Positions 5,563-21,614 of a stretch of DNA of 23,883 bases are shown here, piece by piece. The stretch lies in NCBI GenBank assembly GCA_043804695.1, contig JAZDIV010000062.1:1-23883 (forward strand), read 5' to 3'. The notes under the pieces are model-generated. The model ran no database searches. It saw only the letters and a program-made list of their open reading frames with translations, and was not told where the DNA came from. Position 1 is the first letter of the stretch; every line of letters begins with the position of its first letter. A program made the position numbers and the translations under genes. The stretch is from PVC group bacterium (lineage in GTDB: Bacteria > Auribacterota > Erginobacteria > Erginobacterales > Erginobacteraceae).

Positions 5563-5566
5563 TGCT

Positions 5567-5669
5567 GTGGGAGGGTTTTTTAAGCCCGATCCCACGGCCC
5601 GGCCAGATCGGGGTTGAAAACCCCTCCCACAAGGCCGGGCCACTGTGGGAGGGCTTTTTAAGCCCGATC
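5567..5669. repeat. REP cluster (BIME-like) downstream of RAYT, 3 REPs
   Basis: 5567-5591(+) and 5645-5669(+) GTGGGAGGG(C/T)TTTTTAAGCCCGATC; 5606-5630(-) GTGGGAGGGGTTTTCAACCCCGATC. Confidence 0.9.
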
Positions 5670-6157
5670 TATTCGAGATTAAATTTGCATCTCCAGTAAG
5701 GATACTCAGATGGCTTTTCAACCAACCCTTTTCTAACCGGGTTATAATAGCAATATAAGATTATCTGACGCAGAGATTCTTCTTTTCTAATACAATGGTC
5801 ATAATAACCTTCCTGCCATAATGCGCCTTCCCGGTTCCATAATTTATTTATCTCTCTCGACGAATATCTTTTCCAAGAGTGCATTAATTGCTCAAGTGTA
5901 TTTATTCCTTTAAGTGCAGCTACAAGATGCACATGATCGGGCATTATCATCACGCAAAATAAATCCCATTTATCATTATCTTCCAGCCATTGAATTGAAT
6001 TAAATATAATTTCACAGCTGGCGCTGTCTTTAAATATGCTCTGTTGATCCCTGGTACGCGTTGTTAAAAAATACGCGTGGCCACTGCCAGACCATCGACC
6101 CTGGCGAAGCCAGCTTGAACCTTTCTCCGGATGGCGTTTTTGATTATTATTGTTCAT
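5669..6157 (-). CDS. rayT: REP-associated tyrosine transposase (RAYT, Y1 HUH family)
   Basis: 162 aa; YFLTTRT, HuH motif MPDHVH, WQEGYYDHCIR, YCYYNPVRKGLV; REP clusters on both sides; visibly AT-rich versus neighbours. Confidence 0.92.
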   Translation of the reverse strand: MNNNNQKRHPEKGSSWLRQGRWSGSGHAYFLTTRTRDQQSIFKDSASCEIIFNSIQWLEDNDKWDLFCVMIMPDHVHLVAALKGINTLEQLMHSWKRYSSREINKLWNREGALWQEGYYDHCIRKEESLRQIILYCYYNPVRKGLVEKPSEYPYWRCKFNLE

Positions 6158-6176: not shown

Positions 6177-6344
6177 ATCGGGGTTGGAAACCCCTCCCAC
6201 AATCGCCCCTCGCTAATCGGGGTTTGGAAACCCCTCCCACAAGGCCGGACCACTGTGGGAGGGCTTTTTAAGCCCGATCCCAGGGCCCGGCCAGATCGGG
6301 GTTGGAAACCCCTCCCACAATCACCCAGTAAAAACCCCTCCCAC
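6177..6344. repeat. REP cluster upstream of RAYT, 4 REPs plus a partial
   Basis: 6177-6200(-), 6216-6240(-), 6255-6279(+), 6294-6318(-), partial 6331-6344; two variants with stems GGGGTT/AACCCC (A) and GGGCTT/AAGCCC (B). Confidence 0.9.
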
Positions 6345-8311: not shown

Positions 8312-10063
8312 CTACTTCTTCACCGATTCCAACCCCCGCCGCGCCCGGCGGGAACCGGGGTTCAGTTCCAGGGCTTTTCTGAAGGCATCCCCGGCCTCCG
8401 TCCAACGGCCCTGTTTCATGGCCGTCAGCCCCTTCCACTCCTGGAGGAAGGCGGGGCGGTTGACCTCCCGGTCCCGCCGCATATCGGGCGTCTTGATATT
8501 GACCAGGATCGCCAGCGCCAGTAGAAGCAGGAGATCGCGGCCCAGGACCGCCCATCGCCTCTCCCGGGCCCGGCGGCAGAGCTGCCGGACGGCGGCGGCG
8601 GCAAAGATCAAGAGCACGGGAGCGACGGCCAGGCGAAACCGCGGGATGACGTAGATCAGGAGAGACGAGATCAGGTACGAGGCCAGGTAGAGGTAGAGGA
8701 TCGGACCCGCGGCCCGCGGCCGGGCGATGATGACCCCCAGCAGGGCGATGGGCATGAGAATCGCCGGGGCGATGAAAGGGAAGATCCGGGCGTGATTCGC
8801 CCTCTCCATCACTTCCGGGACATCGTGCGGCTCGTACCCGTTCGCCAGCGCCAAAAGCTTCTTCCCCAGAAGCCGCAGATAGCGCCCGGGGTGTTGACGG
8901 ATGAAAAGGAGCCCCTCCTGGAACCAGAAAGCCGAACCTTCCCCATGTTTCAGGTCCCGGCCGGTTCTCTCCCGGGCGATCTCCAGACTGAAGAGATGCT
9001 CCAGGTAACTGAGCTTCCCGTCCCCCGGGCGGGCGTAATAGGCGATGGTCCGCTCCTCCAGTTCGGGGGGAGGGCTGAAGTCAAATCCCATCGCGCGCGG
9101 GTTGTTGCCGCTGTAAAAGACCCAGCCCCCGCTGGCCGTCACCGGGATAAATTCGCCGCTGTTGGCGTAATTGAAAAGCGTTACAGGAAGGACAACCAGG
9201 GCAACCGGAATCAGGAGAAGGAAGATTCGTCGGATCCTGGTTCCCCATTTTCCGCCGATCGGTTGGCCTGCCACAACCCTGTGGGAGGGCTTTATAAGCC
9301 CGATTTCCCAGCCACTGTGGGAGGGGTTTCCAACCCCGATTCTCAGCCTGGCCGAATCGGGGTTAGAAACCCCTCCCACAATTCGCTTCGCCGAATCGGG
9401 GTTGGAAACCCCTCCCACAATTTGCCCGGCGGGATCGGGGTTGGAAACCCCTCCCACATTTCGCCGCCGCGAAACCCCCGGCATCAAAGATATAGGGGCC
9501 CCGGAATTCACTACCAAATATGGAATCACAAGGAGAAGGAAGATAACGGCATTGGGCCGCGAGATGATGCTTAAACCAATAAAGAGACCGGCGCCGGCAA
9601 TCCAGGATGCCTTTCCCCCGCTCCCGGCCGGGACGAGGCAGATGAGCGCCGCCAGGTTAAAGGTTACCACCCAGATCGCCGGGAGAAAGCTCGTTCCGTA
9701 GATGACAAACGGCCCATAGAAAACCGCGGCCAGGGCGGCGATATAACCGACCTGGCAATTGAAGCAGAGCCGCCCCAGCCGATAAATAAGCCAGCAGTTG
9801 AACGCCCCCAGGAACGCCTGCAGGATCTGCAGATCAAGAATATTACGGCCCGTCCATTGCCCTGCTGCCAGGAAAACGATGTAGAAAGGACTGGAATAAA
9901 ACACCTCAATCTGAGGAGTGATCACGCCCTGGAGTCTGAGCGCCAGTTCCCAGTACTTGAAAAAATATACCAATGGATCAAAAATATAAAAAAGCGCCGA
10001 CAGCTGTACAGCCAGCGCCAGGAGGAATATCAACAAGGGATATAAATTTTTATGCGCGTTCAT
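8312..10063 (-). CDS. GT39/ArnT-like membrane glycosyltransferase with C-terminal TPR and in-frame REP insertion
   Basis: 583 aa; FYSSPFY, SRPN, GGWVFYSGNNP, PRFRL, ALELNPG; contains VGGVSNPD x3 translated from REPs. Confidence 0.78.
   Translation of the reverse strand: MNAHKNLYPLLIFLLALAVQLSALFYIFDPLVYFFKYWELALRLQGVITPQIEVFYSSPFYIVFLAAGQWTGRNILDLQILQAFLGAFNCWLIYRLGRLCFNCQVGYIAALAAVFYGPFVIYGTSFLPAIWVVTFNLAALICLVPAGSGGKASWIAGAGLFIGLSIISRPNAVIFLLLVIPYLVVNSGAPISLMPGVSRRRNVGGVSNPDPAGQIVGGVSNPDSAKRIVGGVSNPDSARLRIGVGNPSHSGWEIGLIKPSHRVVAGQPIGGKWGTRIRRIFLLLIPVALVVLPVTLFNYANSGEFIPVTASGGWVFYSGNNPRAMGFDFSPPPELEERTIAYYARPGDGKLSYLEHLFSLEIARERTGRDLKHGEGSAFWFQEGLLFIRQHPGRYLRLLGKKLLALANGYEPHDVPEVMERANHARIFPFIAPAILMPIALLGVIIARPRAAGPILYLYLASYLISSLLIYVIPRFRLAVAPVLLIFAAAAVRQLCRRARERRWAVLGRDLLLLLALAILVNIKTPDMRRDREVNRPAFLQEWKGLTAMKQGRWTEAGDAFRKALELNPGSRRARRGLESVKK
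9281..9457. repeat. Five REPs inside a coding sequence
   Basis: 9281-9304(+,B), 9317-9340(+,A), 9356-9379, 9395-9418, 9434-9457(-,A); spacings 36, 39, 39, 39 bp. Confidence 0.92.
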
Positions 10064-10066
10064 ACA

Positions 10067-11644
10067 TTAAAATATCTCCTCCTCCCCGTTGAAATGGGGA
10101 GGAGGAGATATTTTACGGTAGATGAATTGCGGGCGCCAGGGATATCCGGTCACCGGGTAAAATACCGGGGCATCTCCGAAGATCGTTCCCGTCCTTGCGT
10201 AGCGGCTCTTCAGCAGCCCCGGGAACCAGTCCTCCCGATCGAGGATGATATAGTCATATCTGCCTTCCCGGATCGCCCTTTCAAACTCTTTCAGCCAGAG
10301 CCGGGCGGGGTCCCCTTCCCGGTCTTTCATGGCCAGCAATAGATCGAGGACCGCGGTCCAGTGGGCGGACGATTCCTTCCCGGCCAGTCGCGGCAGGTAT
10401 CCGTGAAAAGGGAGCAAAACATCTCCCTCCACGCTTTTTATATATGCGATCAGGATGTCACCGGCCTGCCGGTCGGTATCCCGGGGGATACGGGCGGCCG
10501 GAAGATAGCCAAGCATGATGAATTGAACCGCCAGGCAGAGGCCCACCGCCGGCCCGGCGATGACCGATCCCCTACCCTTCCCGGCGGATACTCTCCCCCA
10601 CGTCCACCCGCAAAGGAGCGCAAAGGCGAACGCCGCGGGAAGCAGTGTGTTGACATAGCTGTTTACGTTACCCCTTCCCACCAGGCTGACCAGGAATAGA
10701 CTCGCCCCCAGGAGATAATAGAGCATCCCCGGGACTCCCTCCCGGAGCGGCCGGCGGTCTTTCAGGAGAAGCAGCGGTGAGACCAGGCTGAGCCCGAACA
10801 TCACGGGGAACGTTCCGATGATATCCCCGTACAGAAAATCACGGACCTGGTCCATCCGGATGGCATGCCGGGAGGAGAGGAGGAAAACGTAATAGACATA
10901 CCAGCCTCCGTAACACGCATTCAGGAGAAGGGTACCGCCGCCCGCGAAGAGCGCCAGGGCTCCCAGGTAGAGGAGAAACCGTTTCCATCCGGCAGAGATA
11001 TAGTAGACCCCGATCGCCAGGGCCGGGGCCAGCGCCACCTGCTTGGTAAAAAAGGCGGCGGAGAGCAGCACCGCGGTTAGAATGGGCGCCCAGAGGCCGG
11101 AATCGCGTCGACCGGCAACAAAAGCTCCGAGCGCGATCCAGAAGATGAAAAGGCTGTCCACCCGGGCGATATCCATCCAGGAGCCGGTCGCCCGGTAGGC
11201 GGCCGCGAATAACCCGGCGGAAAGAACCCCCGCCGAAACCAGGTTTGTCTCCCGCTTAATAATAGCGTAGAGGAGAACCATGGTTCCGAAAGAAGCCAGA
11301 AGAGAGACCAGGCGGGGCGCTAAAAACCCCAGGCCGAAGATGCGCATCGCCGCGGCGCTCAGCAGAAAATAGAGCGGCGGGTAAATAAAGGGGACGTACT
11401 GGAGATCCGGCTCACGATAAAGGGGGCTGCCGTTCAACAGCTGCCCGCATTCATCGACAATCGCCCCTTCCATCCATTCCAGTTCATAGGGATAGGCAAT
11501 CCGGTGAAGAGCGGTCCAGAGGTAGGCGGCGATGGCCAGGGCGGAGAGAAGAATGAGGATGTGACTGAGGATGGAAAGGAGACGGGAAAAAAATTTGGGG
11601 CGAAGGCTGTATTGGTTATAGAATGGTTGTGGCTTGGTAGCCAT
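10067..11644 (-). CDS. ArnT/GT39-like GT-C glycosyltransferase
   Basis: 525 aa polytopic; YPYELEWMEG, YPPLY, ARVD, FFTKQ; first ~16 codons resemble the neighbouring transposase N-terminus. Confidence 0.78.
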   Translation of the reverse strand: MATKPQPFYNQYSLRPKFFSRLLSILSHILILLSALAIAAYLWTALHRIAYPYELEWMEGAIVDECGQLLNGSPLYREPDLQYVPFIYPPLYFLLSAAAMRIFGLGFLAPRLVSLLASFGTMVLLYAIIKRETNLVSAGVLSAGLFAAAYRATGSWMDIARVDSLFIFWIALGAFVAGRRDSGLWAPILTAVLLSAAFFTKQVALAPALAIGVYYISAGWKRFLLYLGALALFAGGGTLLLNACYGGWYVYYVFLLSSRHAIRMDQVRDFLYGDIIGTFPVMFGLSLVSPLLLLKDRRPLREGVPGMLYYLLGASLFLVSLVGRGNVNSYVNTLLPAAFAFALLCGWTWGRVSAGKGRGSVIAGPAVGLCLAVQFIMLGYLPAARIPRDTDRQAGDILIAYIKSVEGDVLLPFHGYLPRLAGKESSAHWTAVLDLLLAMKDREGDPARLWLKEFERAIREGRYDYIILDREDWFPGLLKSRYARTGTIFGDAPVFYPVTGYPWRPQFIYRKISPPPHFNGEEEIF

Positions 11645-11646
11645 TG

Positions 11647-11822
11647 AACTTTCTCCCCTGCCGCGTAAGGCGGCAGGGGCCGTTTGTTATTTTTAGTGCT
11701 TGGTGGTAGCTTTTAAACTTTCTCCCCTGCCGCGCAAGGCGGCAGGGGCCGTTTGTTATTTTTAGTGCTTGGTGGTAGCTTTTAAACTTTCTCCCCTGCC
11801 GCGCAAGGCGGCAGGGGCCGTT
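11647..11822. repeat. 69-bp-period tandem repeat with three 38-bp palindromic cores
   Basis: AACTTTCTCCCCTGCCGCGYAAGGCGGCAGGGGCCGTT at 11647, 11716, 11785 with identical 31-bp linkers; a near-identical fourth core at 12833-12870. Confidence 0.92.
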
Positions 11823-11827
11823 GTTTA

Positions 11828-12033
11828 GACCCCCGTGGACTTGTGCCACGGGTGAATCAGTTCAGCAGCTGCCAGCCCTGCTCCCGGCCAGACCCCTGCC
11901 GGCTTGTCCGGCAGGTGAATCAGTTCACATGCTAAAAGCCCGTCCCCCCTCATAAGACCTCCGTGGCCTTGGCCCCCCCCGAGACTGCGAAGCAGTTTTT
12001 CGGGGTGCCACGGGTGAATCAGTTCAGCAGCTA
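11828..12033. repeat. Second-family palindromic repeats in opposite orientation, left flank of Y1 transposase
   Basis: CCCGTGG..TTG.GCCACGGGTGAATCAGTTCAGCAGCT and CCCCTGCCGGCTTGTCCGGCAGGTGAATCAGTTC; 11893-12033 is directly repeated at 12938-13045. Confidence 0.85.
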
Positions 12034-12830
12034 CCTTCTGACAGCCCCCATTGTATATTCCCCGAACGTCCCAACGTAGTAATTATATTCCCAGATACGA
12101 CGTTGCCCCATTAAATAGGCCAGATTATTTTGAAATGCCAGCGCAATATCTTCCGGGGACTGCTCCACGTTGCCCCGGATCGCGATATGCAGATGATCCG
12201 GCATGGCGGAAAGAGTAGAGATTGTATACCCTTTCTTCTCCGCGGTCCGCCGACAGGCAGTGACTAAATCAGCACCTCTTCTGCCCCACCCCATCCGATA
12301 GCGTTCGGCAACAACCAGGACCAGGTGAAGGTTATACCAGTAACTGCCGCTTCCGGTCTGTACAGGTTGAGAAAGATCAACGGATGGATCGTTTATGGCC
12401 TCATTTTTCAGCTATTTTCGTAACGCATATCGGCCAATTTCTCCCGAACCAGTTGTTTCCCGATGTAAGCTTCGACAACCTCCCGGGTATTCCGTCCGAT
12501 ACTTCGAACCGCAAGTTTACGGCTGAACTGGACGGGTTTCCCGACCAGGCGAAAAGCGTGCTGGAGACGGCCCTTGACCCGGGTTGCCAGCAGGAGAGGT
12601 GAGATTTGCGGCGTGGCGCTGAATGTTAATAAGATCCGCCGATCATCCCAGAGATGCTCAAGGAGACGGAGACCGTCTTTTTCCCAGTGTCCGGTCAATT
12701 CCTCCAGGAAAGGATGCGATGGTTGCGGGGGGAAAGTGTCCCGGGAAGGCCATCCGGTCCAGCCGTAACGAAGGTGGTAGGCAGGATGGAGATTATGGGG
12801 GGTATAAAGTGGTTGCGGTTTTATAGCCAT
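12031..12830 (-). pseudogene. tnpA: Tandem two-domain IS200/IS605-like Y1 transposase with one frameshift near 12411
   Basis: Frame 1 (12830-12408) ends FSRKLAVRSIGRNTREVVEAYIGKQ...; second frame open 12411-12031 with YWYNLHLVLV, MPDHLH, WEYNYYVGTFG; adding one base gives ~266 aa. Confidence 0.8.
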
Positions 12831-12832
12831 TG

Positions 12833-13045
12833 AACTTTCTCCCCTGCCGCGTAAAGCGGCAGGGGCCGTTATGTTTGGTGCTATGTGTTAGCTGCTGAAC
12901 TTTCGCTCCCCGACGATAAACGTCGGGGGGGCGTAAACCCCTGCCGGCTTGTCCGGCAGGTGAATGAGTTCTTACGCTAAAGTCCCGTCCCCCCACCACA
13001 AGACCCCCGTGGCCTTGCGCCACGGGTGAATCAGTTCAGCAGCTA
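12833..13045. repeat. Right-flank palindromic repeat block of the Y1 transposase
   Basis: Same units, order and orientation as the block at 11647-12033. Confidence 0.85.
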
Positions 13046-13089
13046 TCAAGAGCCCCCCGGACACCTGCCGGCAAACCCCATCACTTTTA

Positions 13090-13144
13090 CCCGCCGAAGC
13101 TTCAGCGAAGGCGGGCCATTATTCCACCACTCCATCACTCCATT
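13090..13144. repeat. Short palindrome plus degenerate 8-mer array overlapping a stop codon
   Basis: CCCGCCGAAGCTTCAGCGAAGGCGGG at 13090-13115, then cattattc caccactc catcactc. Confidence 0.6.
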
Positions 13145-15287
13145 GTATTTCATACACCACCATCTTGGGGAAGGTGTTGGCGACCTCCCGGTAATGGACG
13201 CGGTAGATCTCCGGGCGCTGCATCATGCCGAACAAGGGCCGGAGCCCGAGCCGCGGGTCGCCGAGTATCCCGAGGTTCTCGAAGATCCAGCCGGGGGTGG
13301 TCTGGAGTTCGACCATCGCCAGGTAGGCGGCCCCCCGTTCTTTCAGGTAGTCGACCACCCGTCCTTCCCGGAGGTAGCCGGCGAAATCACGATCCACCAG
13401 CCCCCCCAGGTCGATAACCTCGGTCCGGGGGGAGAAATATTTCAAGGCCCCGATATCAAAGGCGGCCAGGCGGCTCTGTTCGGGGAGCTCCCGGTCGATC
13501 CGGCGGGCCACGGCGACATGGACATCGTTGATGTGCCGGACGGAAGATGAATACACTTTTCTCCACTTCAGGGTGGAACCGAGATCGAGGAGAATGATCG
13601 CGGCCAGAAGAACAGTCGGCAAAACTCCGGGCCGGGCTCTGATCCGGCCCCCGCCGGGACCGGCGGCCCGGACCAGCCAGCAGGCGGCCGGAAGGAAGAG
13701 CATAATCCAGAAGAGGAGAAAGTTGATCGCCTGGTAACGGCCGGCCTGGCTCGGGCTGGGGAGCATGACGATATACACCAGGTTGTGCCCGGCCGCCCAG
13801 AGCAAGAGGAGGAACAGACCCGAGATGCGTCTTCTTCCCTTCCGGGCATTCTGAAGGATAAGCCGGAGCGAGCAGAGCGCCAGCAGACCGGCCCCGCCCC
13901 AGAAGACAGCCAGCAAAGGCCCCTGCTGAAAAGCGGGCGGGAGGAGGCTGATGGTCAGTCCGTACCCCCAGAGTCTGAGATAGGCGAGCGGCCCCCTCCC
14001 CCCGGCCGGGACCGAGAGCCACTTCCTTCCGGAAAAGGTGGTCGGGAGAAGAGACCCGCTTACGCAAAGGTTCTTCAGCAGCTCGAGAATTAAAAAAAGA
14101 GCCGGGATGAGGAGAAGGGGAAGGATGGGGCGCAGAGCGCAGAGCGCAGAGCGCAGAGCGCCTGGCGCAGAGCGCAGAGCGCCTGGCGCAGAGCGCCCGG
14201 GGCCGGTTTTCTGACCGCTGTGGGAGGGCTTTTCAAGCCCGATTCCCCCGACATGCTGTCGGGGATCGGGGCCCCGACAGATACTGTCGGGGCAAGTTAA
14301 AAATTTACCCCGAAATATTTTCGGGGCCCCTCCCACATCCGGCCTTCCCGCCTCCCCGGATGCGTCCCGCCGGGACTCGATAATCGCGGCATAGACCAGG
14401 GCTATCCCCCAGAGGACGATGCCCTCAATCCGGGTAATCAGCAAAAAGCCGAGCGCCCCCCCCGCCCACCGGTATCGGCCCCGGCTCAAACAGAAAATGG
14501 CGAAGACTCCGATCGCCAGAAAGGCGGTTGTCTCCATCCCCGAGAGGCTGTACCAGATCAGCGGGCCGCAGAGGAGAACGAGGAGCGATATAAAAAAAGC
14601 CAGCAGGTGGGGGAGCATGGCGTAAGGCGCATAGGGCATAGAGCATGGCGCATAGGGCATAGAGCATAGAGCATAGCGCCCTAGCCCGATTCCCGGCTTC
14701 CCCCGGATCGAGGTTACAAACCTCTCCCACAATCGGCCGGCACCGAGGGAGGACAGCCCTGGCCCAATTCCCGGCCCCGCTGGATCGGGGTTGGAAACCC
14801 CTCCCACAATTACCCCTCGCTGATCGGGGTTGGAAACCCCTCCTACAATCGCCCCTCGCTGATCGGGGTAAAAAACCTCTCCCGCGGATAACAGAAATCG
14901 GTAGACAAGGAGCCCCGTCATTGCCGCGAGGGAGAACTGGGCGGCGCACCCTAAAAAGATGCTCCAGCCGACAACGGAAAAACCAAAGGACCGGCCCAGG
15001 CTGAGGAGAAGGAACCAGAGGGTGCTGGTAAAGCCGATCGAGGGCCGGCCGGGGTTAAAAGCGGTCTCCCCGCCGGAGACAAAATTCCGGGCAAAAACGG
15101 CATAGATCCAGCTGTCGTCGAGGGGGAAACCGGGGGCATTGCCGGCCAGAAACGGGAAGGCACCGGGGAGGAGCGGCGCGATAAAGGACCAGATAATCGC
15201 AAATTCAACCAGGAGGAGCAAAAAGATCCGGAATCGCTTTTTTCCCGCAGTCCCCACTTCTCTGACTTGCGCAAGCAGTCCTCTCAC
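13119..15287 (-). CDS. GT-C-like membrane glycosyltransferase (AftB-like motifs) with two in-frame repeat-derived insertions
   Basis: 722 aa; LDDSWIYAVFARN, FNPG, GFTSTLW, SGMET, RIEG, DIGALKYFS, DLGGLVD; GTGA overlap with upstream gene. Confidence 0.72.
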   Translation of the reverse strand: MRGLLAQVREVGTAGKKRFRIFLLLLVEFAIIWSFIAPLLPGAFPFLAGNAPGFPLDDSWIYAVFARNFVSGGETAFNPGRPSIGFTSTLWFLLLSLGRSFGFSVVGWSIFLGCAAQFSLAAMTGLLVYRFLLSAGEVFYPDQRGAIVGGVSNPDQRGVIVGGVSNPDPAGPGIGPGLSSLGAGRLWERFVTSIRGKPGIGLGRYALCSMPYAPCSMPYAPYAMLPHLLAFFISLLVLLCGPLIWYSLSGMETTAFLAIGVFAIFCLSRGRYRWAGGALGFLLITRIEGIVLWGIALVYAAIIESRRDASGEAGRPDVGGAPKIFRGKFLTCPDSICRGPDPRQHVGGIGLEKPSHSGQKTGPGRSAPGALRSAPGALRSALCALRPILPLLLIPALFLILELLKNLCVSGSLLPTTFSGRKWLSVPAGGRGPLAYLRLWGYGLTISLLPPAFQQGPLLAVFWGGAGLLALCSLRLILQNARKGRRRISGLFLLLLWAAGHNLVYIVMLPSPSQAGRYQAINFLLFWIMLFLPAACWLVRAAGPGGGRIRARPGVLPTVLLAAIILLDLGSTLKWRKVYSSSVRHINDVHVAVARRIDRELPEQSRLAAFDIGALKYFSPRTEVIDLGGLVDRDFAGYLREGRVVDYLKERGAAYLAMVELQTTPGWIFENLGILGDPRLGLRPLFGMMQRPEIYRVHYREVANTFPKMVVYEIQWSDGVVE
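14130..14192. repeat. Heptamer array, 9 units GCGCAGA/GCGCCTG
   Basis: 9 x 7 = 63 bp read directly, plus a degenerate tenth unit. Confidence 0.9.
14220..14336. repeat. Intragenic REP-B, micro-hairpin and expanded REP
   Basis: 14220-14243 GTGGGAGGGCTTTTCAAGCCCGAT; hairpin 14246-14264; branched REP 14265-14336. Confidence 0.85.
14613..14675. repeat. Heptamer array, 9 units G(A/C/G)GCAT(A/G)
   Basis: gagcatg gcgtaag gcgcata gggcata gagcatg gcgcata gggcata gagcata gagcata; encodes YALCSMPYAPCSMPYAP. Confidence 0.85.
14707..14885 (-). repeat. Intragenic cluster of four REP-A copies
   Basis: 14707-14730 variant, 14784-14807, 14823-14846 (GTAG), 14862-14885 degenerate; last three at 39-bp period. 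Confidence 0.88.
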
Positions 15288-15505
15288 ATCCCCCAGTGAT
15301 TGTATATGTAATAGGCCATGAACAGGAAAAAGAGCCCGACTGTGGTCAGGATCACTCCCACCGAAATCCGGTACTTCAACGTCTTGTGGTCGGTTGAGAC
15401 AATCTGGTTAAGCAGCGAGCTCAATTTCACCAGCGCCCCGGGCGCGATCAGAAACATGACCCCCGAGCTCAGGGCGACAAAACCGACCAGTATAAAAGCA
15501 GTCAT
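15284..15505 (-). CDS. Small two-TM membrane protein
   Basis: 73 aa, two hydrophobic helices; stop/start overlaps with both neighbours. Confidence 0.75.
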   Translation of the reverse strand: MTAFILVGFVALSSGVMFLIAPGALVKLSSLLNQIVSTDHKTLKYRISVGVILTTVGLFFLFMAYYIYNHWGM

Positions 15506-17808
15506 CTCCGGCTCCTTTTCATCGCTTTGGTAAGCACCCTGCCTCCGAAATCACCCTTGTTCCCTTCCTTCTCCTCCATCGTACTCCCGTCTTCTTCTCC
15601 CTCCGCTTCCGGCTGGGGAGGTTCCGGCTCCTTAGCGCTCTTGTAAAGATACGACCGCACCTGGTCGTCCTCGACATAGCGGACGTCCTCGAGCGCGTCG
15701 GGAGGAGACTTCTCCAGCATGAGCTTCTCGTAAGGGGAGATCTCGAAGTCTTCCGTAACGATCCGGGCGGTGATGAAGATCAATATGTTTGTTTTTTCCA
15801 GCTTGGTATGTTCTTCCTTGAAGAAGTAACCCAGGATCGGGATATCTCCCAGGAGGGGGATCTTGTCCTCCTCATCAACAGAACGGCTATCGATCAAGCC
15901 TCCAATAACGATGGTATCTCCGTCCGGAACGGTCACATTGGAATCGGTACCCCTGGTGTTGATGACGGGATAGGCGGAATCTACGAACCCTTGACCGTAA
16001 ACAAATGCCGGGGCCCACCCGTCCTGGATGCTGACCTCGGGGTGGATGATCATATTGATTCCCAGCGTTCCGTCCCCCATTCTTCTTACCTGCGGTATTA
16101 CCGCGAGAAGGATGCCGATCTCCTTCCATTCCTCGAGCGAGGTCCCCCCCACCCCGTATTCGCCGACCTCCGTCTTGAGGATCGGGAATTCCTTGCCGAT
16201 GAATATCTTCGCCCGGTAGTTCTCATGGACGAGAATCCGGGGATTGGAGAGGAGGACGATATTCGAATCCGTCTTCATCGCGGAGAGCATCAGGTTGAAG
16301 TCGGCCGCGTTCAGTATCGCGCTGTAGGTCTCGCTGGCGGTTGAAAGCTTGGTCAGGGTATCGGAGATGCCGTAGAGATAATCATCGAAATTGCGCTTGG
16401 TCTCGGAATCTTCGATCCGGGTGTAGAATTCATCGGCCCAGCCGGATGTCCGGACGTCGTTGCCGACATTCGCCCGCCAGGCGACGTTCTGCTGGAAGGG
16501 GCCGCCGGTTTCACTGTCTGGTATGGTGTAATCATACAGGTCGGGGATCTTGATCGATCCCCCCCCGCTTGTGGGATAGCCGCTCCCGGAGTAACTCATC
16601 CGGCCGGACGTATCACCATCTTTCGCCTCTCCCCGGTCATATTCCTTGGTATCCTCGCCCTCCACCCAGGTTCTTTCCTTCTCGTATCCACTCCCCCAGT
16701 CATGGGTGTCTTTATCGGTAGAGTCCGATGTCCGCCGATAGCTCTTCCCCAGTATCGCCTGCATGTCATTTGCGCCGACGTTCCACTGGTTAAGCGCCTC
16801 CGTCCAGTTGATCCCGAGGCGGAACTCATGTTTGACCGGGACCTCCAGAATCTTGGCGTCGATCAGGATCTGACAGGGTTTCTTGTCGATCTCCTTGATT
16901 ACGGGGTCGAGCCGGTTGAGAACGGTGGCAATGTCCTGAATAATTAATGTCTTGGAGCGGCTAAATTCCTCTGCTTCCTCTCCCTGCATGGCAGCGATTT
17001 TGTCGGCCAGGCTCCATTTAAACCCCTTGAATTGCTGGGTTTTTAACACCATAACCTTCCCACGGGGTGAAAGCAGTGTCTGGATCGCCTCTTTGGCGTC
17101 GGTGGCATCGATATGCTGCAATTCGAAGACTTTTACCACCAGCGGCTCCGCCTGCTCCTCGGCCTGCCGCTTCTTCGCTTCCTCCATCGCCTTCTGGGCG
17201 CCGGCGGCCTCCCGGGCGGCGTCGGCCGTCGTCTCCGCCTGGATCTTCTCCAGCGAGGTCACCCGGAGGATATTCCCGCTTATCCGGTACCCCAATTCCA
17301 GATCCACCAGTATCGTCTGGAGCGCGTCGATGATCTTCACATCGGTAAAATCAACCGTGACCTTCCCCTGCACTTCCGGGGCCAGGGTCACGTTGAAGCC
17401 GTAGGCTTTGGCCAGGCTCCTCAGGACCACCCGGATGTCCTCATCAACGAATTTCAGGCTCCCCCGCTTCTCTAACTGCTCTTGCAGCGATAAACCGGCC
17501 GCGGCGGTCGGGGGAGCGATCGGCAGCTCTTCTTTCAGCGGGACGGGAGCTTCCACCGCGGGCGGTTCCGGGGTGATTTCTCCTTCGGGAGAGCCGGGGA
17601 TGAGATCGGCCGGAGGGAGATCGAGCCCGGCGGCCGGAGACTCCCCGGCCGGGGCCCCGTTCTCCCGCATCTCTTTTTTGATCTCCTCCATGGCCAGGAT
17701 CAACTCGTTGTCCATCGTCGCGGCGCCGTAAAGGAACGGGGGCGGAACCAGCATCATCGCCATCGAGAAGACCACCAGCAATATCGGCAGATCGGTTATC
17801 TTTTTCAT
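15502..17808 (-). CDS. pilQ: Outer-membrane secretin (PilQ/GspD family)
   Basis: Signal peptide, N0 (SLKFVDEDIRVVL...GKVTVDF), N3 (KVFELQHIDA), QILIDAKILEV, LSNPRI, GDTIVIGGLI, KIPLLGDIPILGYFF. Confidence 0.9.
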   Translation of the reverse strand: MKKITDLPILLVVFSMAMMLVPPPFLYGAATMDNELILAMEEIKKEMRENGAPAGESPAAGLDLPPADLIPGSPEGEITPEPPAVEAPVPLKEELPIAPPTAAAGLSLQEQLEKRGSLKFVDEDIRVVLRSLAKAYGFNVTLAPEVQGKVTVDFTDVKIIDALQTILVDLELGYRISGNILRVTSLEKIQAETTADAAREAAGAQKAMEEAKKRQAEEQAEPLVVKVFELQHIDATDAKEAIQTLLSPRGKVMVLKTQQFKGFKWSLADKIAAMQGEEAEEFSRSKTLIIQDIATVLNRLDPVIKEIDKKPCQILIDAKILEVPVKHEFRLGINWTEALNQWNVGANDMQAILGKSYRRTSDSTDKDTHDWGSGYEKERTWVEGEDTKEYDRGEAKDGDTSGRMSYSGSGYPTSGGGSIKIPDLYDYTIPDSETGGPFQQNVAWRANVGNDVRTSGWADEFYTRIEDSETKRNFDDYLYGISDTLTKLSTASETYSAILNAADFNLMLSAMKTDSNIVLLSNPRILVHENYRAKIFIGKEFPILKTEVGEYGVGGTSLEEWKEIGILLAVIPQVRRMGDGTLGINMIIHPEVSIQDGWAPAFVYGQGFVDSAYPVINTRGTDSNVTVPDGDTIVIGGLIDSRSVDEEDKIPLLGDIPILGYFFKEEHTKLEKTNILIFITARIVTEDFEISPYEKLMLEKSPPDALEDVRYVEDDQVRSYLYKSAKEPEPPQPEAEGEEDGSTMEEKEGNKGDFGGRVLTKAMKRSRR

Positions 17809-19099: not shown

Positions 19100-19282
19100 T
19101 TTAAATTTGCTCGCTGGGCTCGCAAATTTATTGGACCATTGGATCAATCTTGCTCACAATAAAAAAAGATTGCTAACGTTTCTCGAATTAGTTTGTAGTC
19201 AACTATTCTTAACAAAACGGTAATCCCTTGTTGTCATCAAGCGCAGGCTGCGCATTTCGTTTTGGTTATTTTCCTTCGATAA

Positions 19283-21390: not shown

Positions 21391-21614
21391 GTAGCGGCGA
21401 CCTTCAGGTCGCCACTATCTGGCAGCCTAAAGAGGCTGTCCGACAATTCAGATTTTAGGCATTTTAGAGGTCATTGCGAGGAGCGAAGCGACGAAGCAAT
21501 CTCATCATTTTGGATAAGAGGTGGTTATGAATGAAAAAATAGATTGCTTCGCCCCTCCGGGGCTCGCGATGACATTTCAGGGGTTGTCGGACAGCCTCTA
21601 AAGGCTGCCGCTAC
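21391..21614. repeat. Inverted GTAG REP doublet (third REP family), second copy split by a MITE
   Basis: GTAGCGGCGACCTTCAGGTCGCC at 21391-21413; GGCAGCC-TAAA-GGCTGCCGCTAC split between 21421-21431 and 21599-21614. Confidence 0.85.
21432..21598. mobile_element. 167-bp MITE with 15-bp TIRs and TAAA target duplication
   Basis: GAGGCTGTCCGACAA (21432-21446) / TTGTCGGACAGCCTC (21584-21598); TAAA at 21428-21431 and 21599-21602. Confidence 0.88.

Follow-up and report, generated by a model that had tools for sequence, protein, structure and literature searches.

In the 23,883-nucleotide (nt) stretch of DNA analysed here (the window; contig C62 of an assembly of 2.97 Mb, 155 contigs and 57.8% G+C), a gene for a polytopic membrane protein is read through two inserts, each of which combines repetitive extragenic palindromes (REPs) with a tandem array of 7-bp units (heptamers). 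We consider it likely, with a probability of about 0.7, that the inserts are tolerated in-frame copies of a mosaic repeat cassette linked to a REP-associated tyrosine transposase (RAYT), that they occupy permissive, disordered loops of the protein, and that they are passengers and not a switch. The host gene and the parts of the two inserts are the following.

13119..15287, (-) strand: host gene, an open reading frame (ORF) translated into a 722-residue polytopic membrane protein, glycosyltransferase C (GT-C)-like and a remote relative of GT39/PMT_2
~14604-14888, (-) strand: insert 1 (loop 1, residues ~134-228), a mosaic of REPs, a REP stub and heptamers, delimited by the orthologue alignment and the loop-length table
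14707..14886, (-) strand: four REP copies of insert 1, in one orientation on the gene strand and 39 bp (13 codons) apart, read ..VGGVSNPD..
14613..14679, (-) strand: heptamer array 1, TATGCNC-type units read CSMPYAP CSMPYAP YAMLP, from Tandem Repeats Finder (TRF) and unit parsing
~14124-14372, (-) strand: insert 2 (loop 2, residues ~306-388), a degenerate REP pair around three small hairpins, then a spacer and heptamers, delimited by the alignment, the loop-length table and the sequence
14219..14243, (-) strand: REP copy of insert 2 with 3 mismatches, followed by a ~20-nt spacer, GGGCGC and the heptamers
14130..14196, (-) strand: heptamer array 2, TCTGCGC/CAGGCGC units read SAPGALR SAPGALR SALCALR, from TRF

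Insert 1 is about 95 residues long. Three of its REPs lie within 5 substitutions of a 25-mer (cluster 14707-14847), the exact form of which is found at 14784-14808, and the fourth, at ~14858-14886, is degenerate (72% identity). TRF reported the REP tandem as a 39-bp period of 2.7 copies at 14778-14883. In the direction of the gene, the REPs are followed by a 9-nt REP stub (14683-14691) and then by the heptamers, for which TRF gave period 7 with 6.9 copies at 14629-14676 (85% matches) and periods 21 and 28 over 14613-14679. Insert 2 is about 83 residues long and contains a half REP (~14323-14337), separated from the clear REP copy by three other small hairpins; array 2 was reported with period 7 (9.6 copies, 80% matches) and with period 21 (3.2 copies, 93% matches). 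On the gene strand both inserts therefore present their REPs first and their heptamers second, and the repeat search gave 69-77% likeness between the two arrays.

The original prediction had described both inserts as a REP cluster plus nine heptamers within an open frame of 722 codons, and TRF, the repeat search and the ORF all agree with this architecture. Nine units, or 63 bp, in each array is a fair count, which depends on where the boundaries are drawn: array 1 was parsed into 7 clean and 2 degenerate units, and array 2 into 9 clean units over 63 nt and a degenerate tenth. Perfect repetition extends further at 21 bp than at 7 bp, over 42 nt versus 20 nt (2.9 units) in array 1 and over 53 nt versus 32 nt (4.6 units) in array 2, which indicates that the latest expansions of the arrays took place in frame, three units per step.

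The ORF is uninterrupted through both inserts. Insert 1 has no stop in the gene frame, and 4 and 0 stops in the other two sense frames; insert 2 has none in the gene frame, and 1 and 2 in the others. In an AlphaFold (AF2) model of the protein, the predicted local distance difference test (pLDDT) score falls below 50 at residues 139-220 (loop 1) and 311-378 (loop 2), in each case between confidently modelled helices, and each heptamer array abuts the start of the next hydrophobic, presumed transmembrane, helix. The topology was drawn from hydropathy alone and the positive-inside rule, which put loop 2 probably in the cytoplasm, whichever of the two helix counts considered is assumed, and leave loop 1 ambiguous.

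The reading frame is under purifying selection before, between and after the inserts. Measured against G001, a genome of the same genus and the nearest one (dS about 1), the ratio of nonsynonymous to synonymous substitution rates (dN/dS) was 0.20 in the core (485 codons), 0.16 between the inserts (73 codons) and 0.19 after insert 2 (329 codons). The values were 0.17 against the related genome G003 and 0.12 against L107, a full-length orthologue from a metagenome, and all three complete orthologous genes read as DNA (those of G001, G003 and L107) are open through both loops. These values bear out the earlier proposal that selection keeps the frame. They also make it hardly credible that the gene is dead or mis-called, its ORF open by chance across stop-free repeats. 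Such a reading could point to the REPs and both heptamer arrays, which lack stops in all three sense frames, and to a host protein that matches no sequence family, but it is opposed by a dN/dS of about 0.2 in one and the same frame in all three flanking segments, by 11 full-length orthologues, and by insert 2, which is stop-free solely in the gene frame.

The components of both inserts belong to families that are spread over the genome. The REP 25-mer has 52 genome matches at up to 3 mismatches, whereas its reversed control has none; allowing up to 5 substitutions raises the number to 87, grouped in 48 clusters, with still 0 in the control. Five of the 48 clusters, in 4 ORFs, lie deep inside long ORFs. 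The layout read from the sequence is a tetranucleotide, GA, a 6-bp stem, a 3-nt loop, the second arm of the stem and a 3-nt tail, and the stem variants are compensatory (GGGGTT/AACCCC, GAGGTT/AACCTC and GGGCTT/AAGCCC). The conserved GTAG (or CGTC) tetranucleotide is absent from the REP end, which reads GTGG and then GA, a variant tag. Among relatives, the family has 21 matches in G003, 6 in G004 and 2 in G001, and none in G002 and G010; it is common to members of the taxonomic family (G003, G004 and G001).

Period 7 is the commonest TRF period in the genome (217 of 1292 rows), and merging yielded 210 heptamer arrays of many unit types, often arranged as facing pairs. Only 38 of these arrays lie within stop-to-stop ORFs, although such ORFs make up 88.6% of the genome, and most of the 38 are at ORF edges. 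The units of both inserts form one family, TMTGCNC on the gene strand. A pattern of at least three units of this family occurs in 27 arrays of the genome and in 1 of the reversed control; together with the 52 versus 0 matches of the REP, this excludes chance as the origin of the inserts' repeats. A 15-unit array at C24:19102-19206 was rejected as a further intragenic case; a plausible gene on the other strand ends near 19195. Perfect arrays (100% matches) are present at C26:5554-5690 (19.6 units) and C111:1-98 (14 units, at a contig end). From perfect arrays of up to 19.6 units, heptamer expansion appears to be active in this genome, and it may break assemblies.

The two families are associated. 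Of the 27 TMTGCNC arrays, seven have a REP cluster at most 40 nt away, as opposed to 1 of the 202 arrays of other families (Fisher p 1.1e-6), and with the two arrays of the host gene left out the count is still 5 of 25. Random placement of arrays in non-ORF space gave a mean of 0.23 near REP clusters and a maximum of 3 in 2000 trials. An association of heptamers in general with REPs was rejected on the same figure of 1 in 202. Two intergenic cassettes, C22:13996-14109 and C22:19087-19193, consist of two facing REPs, ~20 nt, CCGGCGC and 4-5 heptamers. Insert 2 has the same order of elements; insert 1 shares it as well, except that one REP has been multiplied in steps of 39 bp and only the 9-nt stub is left of the facing one. 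The common architecture of the inserts is thus explained by a generic intergenic cassette: they are two copies of one composite building block that was not made for the host gene.

A candidate source of mobility for the REPs is encoded in the window itself, 8 kb from the host gene.

5669..6157, (-) strand: RAYT gene, matching NCBIfam NF047646 (3.2e-39, 134 bits, cut-off 80) and Pfam Y1_Tnp

The gene is flanked by inverted REP clusters of the family found in the inserts, at 5566-5668 (3 REPs) and 6177-6319 (4 REPs). The segment 5566-6319 is a complete REPtron, that is, a RAYT gene with flanking REPs of the intragenic family.

We compared the host protein with a set of 11 orthologous proteins of 552-679 residues; the cluster of the host protein and each of the 11 orthologue clusters has one member, and the loop-length table comprises all 12 sequences. 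For the segment 13900-15100, a look for public sequencing runs listed none. Scans of contigs from genomes and metagenomes yielded the genes of G001 and G003, a broken copy in G004, the full-length metagenome orthologue L107, and fragments; the remaining loci were distant, insert-less homologues of Chloroflexota type, with a match spanning about 414 codons. The orthologue alignment, which the original prediction had proposed, places both inserts in length-variable loops with differing contents. The 11 orthologues align well except at these two loops. Loop 1, measured from the invariant L132 to C240, has 25-127 residues across the 12 aligned sequences, and loop 2, from Y299 to P390, has 18-90 residues and is longest in the host gene. 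In some orthologues a loop is almost missing, as in P0013 at loop 1 and P0012 at loop 2.

The contents of the loops differ from species to species. In G001, loop 1 is composed of two REPs, a spacer and 6 heptamers, and loop 2 of a facing (inverted) pair of heptamer arrays. In G003, loop 2 has ~4 heptamers and no REP. Loop 1 of L107 contains one REP in the orientation seen in the window and four in the opposite one, two of which are exact 25-mers, and has no heptamers; its loop 2 contains an unrelated palindrome. Several other orthologues have peptides at the same places that correspond to translated REPs or heptamers, and REPs are translated in both orientations in different species. The copy in G004, a metagenome-assembled genome of Candidatus Euphemobacter frigidus (L029, C2 about 1850-2000), retains only the first ~140 codons; its frame terminates inside the REP cluster of loop 1, next to which lies a different PMT-like gene. 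This truncation may be a REP-mediated deletion. The REP copies in the loops are exact or nearly so although the flanking codons are at a dS of about 1 or more, and loop contents must therefore turn over. Occupation of the repeat sites is older than the split of the genus. Their contents, as we infer from the exact copies, were renewed and not inherited from one ancient insertion. A palindrome of the type found in frame in loop 2 of L107 also occurs in the window, as an inverted repeat with 33-nt arms (21470-21502 and 21541-21573) among nested inverted repeats at 21421-21609, between a ParA-like gene and the PilM gene.

The host protein has no Pfam match at E<=1 and no NCBIfam match at E<=0.1, and its profile has no match at E<=1 among PDB sequences. 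The AF2 model has a mean pLDDT of 62 and a predicted TM-score (pTM) of 0.67. The 20 best Foldseek matches of this model are all GT-C enzymes, among them ArnT, AglB, DPY19, ALG9/12, AftA/B and STT3; the matches are weak (E 1.3e-4 to 1e-2), and the best, at E 1.3e-4 and TM 0.37/0.46, refers to a model with the stated mean pLDDT. Comparison of the host family with the family of a neighbouring GT39/PMT_2 protein by hhalign gave a probability of 91.9% and an E-value of 6.9e-7 over 197 columns. The protein has ~11 hydrophobic helices and then an alpha/beta domain at 601-716, and the residues D57 and D58, in the sequence GFPLDDSW after the first helix, are invariant among the aligned orthologues. The layout of GT-C enzymes is thus present: a polytopic N-terminal membrane domain, an acidic motif in the first outer loop and a C-terminal soluble domain. 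The fold matches and the alignment with the GT39 neighbour family argue, with modest strength, for a GT-C-like enzyme.

The host gene is the last after a secretin gene and a small ORF.

15284..15505, (-) strand: small membrane ORF of 73 residues, between the secretin gene and the host gene, identified from the sequence
15502..17808, (-) strand: secretin (PilQ-like) gene, directly upstream of the 73-residue ORF and the host gene, matching Pfam Secretin (2.1e-39)

The 73-residue ORF has weak Pfam hints only, and its stop overlaps the GTG start of the host gene. Genes of the PilO, PilM and T2SSE types are located upstream of the secretin gene. The order of secretin gene, small ORF and orthologue is kept in G001, and so the coupling of the putative glycosyltransferase to the pilus cluster, as originally proposed, is upheld with modest strength. 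On the downstream side of the host gene a second repeat system is found at 11635-13060. It comprises a 69-nt tandem repeat (2.7 copies, 96%), of which an extra copy lies at 12821-12889, and hairpin modules of 58 nt (11829-11949 and 12937-13060). Together they enclose a short Y1_Tnp ORF (12031..12336) and a 140-residue ORF without a family.

Repeats of the same kinds are read in frame in other genes, one of which is a neighbour in the window.

9280..9458, (-) strand: third in-frame REP cluster, with 5 copies, inside the GT39/PMT_2+TPR gene 8312..10063

The REP-bearing loop of this GT39 gene is hypervariable among its own 11 aligned orthologues, and hhalign pairs it with loop 2 of the host protein. 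Elsewhere in the genome, a miaA-like gene (IPPT, 1.1e-81) contains three different heptamer modules in frame at C114:18560-18760 (L016), and an ABC_tran_2 gene (9.9e-124) contains three REPs at 39-bp spacing, with in-frame RIEVGNLSHNLPG-type repeats, at C124:11807-11909 (L013). Each of these two sets of repeats lies within a single Pfam match, which exceeds the profile by ~40 residues. With 56 PMT_2 matches in 3 Mb, the GT-C family of this genome is unusually large. Facing pairs of TMTGCNC arrays abut the start codons of two PMT_2 genes, at C114:41902-42025 (11+3 units) and C149:29916-30010 (8+5 units).

Our preferred explanation of the inserts is as follows. The cassette, similar to a bacterial interspersed mosaic element (BIME), consists of REP hairpins of the RAYT-flanking family, a spacer and a TMTGCNC heptamer module. 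Its latest growth proceeded in steps of 39 bp, which is one REP unit or 13 codons, and of 21 bp, which is three heptamers or 7 codons. The repeats would arrive and turn over by the process that spreads them between genes, either RAYT-mediated or recombinational copying, with slippage for the heptamers. Selection would only filter the outcome: a copy would have to be free of stops in the gene frame, to measure a multiple of three and to encode a peptide tolerable in a loop. Since selection would merely filter, the inserts would be passengers and not a dedicated switch.

Several points weigh against this explanation. Insertion by the RAYT is a step that we infer. Both arrays end exactly at a transmembrane helix, their equal count of nine is left without explanation, and the perfect 32-nt run of array 2 (4.6 heptamers) could slip. 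In addition, the repeats are concentrated at GT-C genes. TMTGCNC arrays of at least 7 units inside or up to 150 nt upstream of an ORF were found for 3 of 56 GT-C-type ORFs and 1 of 1259 others (p 2.8e-4), and REP clusters at least 300 nt from both ORF ends were found in the same proportions, 3 of 56 and 1 of 1259 (p 2.8e-4), where the ORFs compared are those of at least 300 residues and the GT-C set includes the host gene, without which 2 of 55 remain. This concentration could reflect a functional tie rather than mere tolerance.

The gene had originally been proposed to be a possible phase-variation switch, that is, a contingency locus in which slipped-strand gain or loss of single heptamers turns the pilus-linked GT-C enzyme on and off. 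The unit is not a multiple of three, both arrays are in the 5' half of the ORF, and a change of one heptamer does shift the frame as had been predicted: beyond array 1 the shifted frames run into a stop after 17 or 61 codons, and beyond array 2 after 12 or 223, hence early in three of the four. Unit numbers vary among orthologues (9 versus 6 in loop 1, 9 versus about 4 in loop 2), the 19.6-unit perfect array of contig C26 testifies to active expansion, long TMTGCNC arrays cluster at GT-C genes and face each other at two PMT_2 start codons, and a family of 56 PMT_2 matches has a size suited to variable surface chemistry. However, the matches at period 7 reach only 80-85%, versus 93% at period 21, and perfect repetition is longer at 21 bp (53 and 42 nt) than at 7 bp (32 and 20 nt). 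None of the three complete orthologous genes is out of frame, and the sole broken copy, that of G004, fails in the REP cluster and not in the heptamers. Moreover, the same module is ordinary between genes and is present in the miaA-like gene, a housekeeping gene, while L107 is without heptamers at these sites. We therefore regard a switch as unlikely: with imperfect arrays, in-frame growth by 21 bp and a generic, intergenic module, it is unsupported rather than refuted. In a broader form of the idea, the heptamer modules, together with the arrays upstream of the two PMT_2 genes, would make up a contingency system that switches or tunes members of the GT-C family, with REP and RAYT renewing the cassettes; this we hold to be rather unlikely.

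The loops could instead have been exapted, with repeat peptides such as SAPGALR and VGGVSNPD serving as functional linkers or interaction surfaces, or with loop length tuning the enzyme or its link to the pilus. Occupation of the sites since before the genus split, occupation of the homologous loop in the GT39 paralogue and the enrichment of intragenic REPs in GT-C genes would all be in line with such a role. Against it, sequences and lengths differ freely among orthologues (18-127 residues), REP orientation differs between species, P0013 and P0012 have nearly no loop 1 and loop 2, respectively, and both inserts are modelled as disordered, which renders exaptation improbable. Quite improbable, too, is a role at the level of the nucleic acid, in which hairpins or arrays would bind a protein, make translation pause ahead of a membrane helix or stabilise the mRNA, and their own translation would be incidental. 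The position of both arrays, each adjoining the beginning of a transmembrane helix, and the inverted heptamer pairs directly upstream of two PMT_2 start codons fit this proposal, as do the heptanucleotide arrays of Geobacter metallireducens, which the accessible sections of one report propose to be regulator-binding or RNA elements, also within genes (PMC2700814), but the type of element at these sites is not conserved across orthologues. Tolerated copies of the RAYT-linked cassette thus remain our preferred account of the inserts.

Read as tolerated copies, the inserts mean that a whole mosaic intergenic cassette can reside within a coding sequence and be translated, here at two places of the same gene, and that the same loops stay filled while their contents change, across species at a dS of about 1 or more. 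The loops of GT-C proteins would then form a natural record, showing what a polytopic membrane enzyme can accommodate and how a RAYT/REP population is renewed. For annotators, length-variable low-complexity loops in GT-C genes of Auribacterota are to be taken as repeat DNA and not as domain features. Also, a 7-bp tract in an ORF is by itself no evidence of phase variation where the genome is full of such tracts.

Intragenic in-frame REPs as such are already known. According to the accessible sections of Di Nocera, De Gregorio and Rocco 2013 (PMC3733652), REPs tagged with GTAG or CGTC can be contained entirely in the ORFs of known proteins and be translated with them. They occur there singly, as dimers or in groups, and some genes have them at two places. 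The authors suggest that such copies are neutral where they fall in flexible linkers or loops; they were most numerous in Opitutus terrae, a member of the PVC group, and Rickettsia conorii. The REPs described here resemble those of that study (its Table 1) in the layout of the palindrome and in RAYT genes flanked by REPs. They differ from what those sections report in that the tag is GTGG and not GTAG, that REPs are joined to a heptamer module as one cassette, that the inserts measure about 95 and 83 residues versus 20-30 for dimers and groups, and that the same loops are occupied across orthologues with differing contents (PMC3733652). Rickettsia palindromic elements (RPEs; Ogata et al. 2000, 2002, as summarised in PMC10969869) were described in the available part of that summary as selfish elements that occur in frame in many unrelated genes. 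Like the present repeats, they are in-frame palindromic repeats kept across species and compatible with protein folding, but as summarised there they are units of ~150 bp that encode a conserved peptide and are not linked to a transposase (PMC10969869). Here, in contrast to RPEs, REPs of 25-39 bp are combined with a RAYT and tandem heptamers, and the peptide depends on orientation. As with elements of this type, an in-frame palindrome was found inside a conserved ORF, read through and absent from or different in orthologues, and the encoded segment falls in a loop or linker compatible with the fold, judging from the predicted model (pLDDT below 50).

The BIMEs of enterobacteria are composite intergenic cassettes of REPs and other short non-REP motifs in a fixed order. 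The present cassette is likewise a composite of REPs and other motifs, but BIMEs lie outside genes, and tandem heptamers are not among their additional motifs. The short tandemly repeated repetitive (STRR) heptamers of cyanobacteria form genome-wide families of tandem heptanucleotides with other unit sequences than those found here, and we know of no described link between them and REPs or a RAYT. Contingency loci of Haemophilus, Neisseria and Campylobacter have long, perfect repeat tracts that are polymorphic within populations. The host gene is similar to them in that a unit that is not a multiple of three lies within the 5' part of the ORF of a surface-glycosylation-type gene, but it has no long perfect or near-perfect tract, its tracts being imperfect and carrying a 21-bp super-period. 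In Geobacter metallireducens, families of 4-5 tandem heptanucleotides are spread over the genome, often as facing pairs, and one family also occurs within genes, as the accessible part of the report states (PMC2700814); these arrays have other unit sequences, and that part describes no link to REPs or a RAYT (PMC2700814). A limited search of the literature on RAYT genes and REP doublets forming hairpins (REPINs) with intragenic ORFs, and on Auribacterota, found no description of such a composite. What is new here, relative to these systems, is a translated heptamer module joined to REPs as one cassette with turnover at one orthologous site, inserts as long as about 95 and 83 residues that are both located in a single gene, a preference for GT-C genes, and persistence with turnover at orthologous and paralogous loops.

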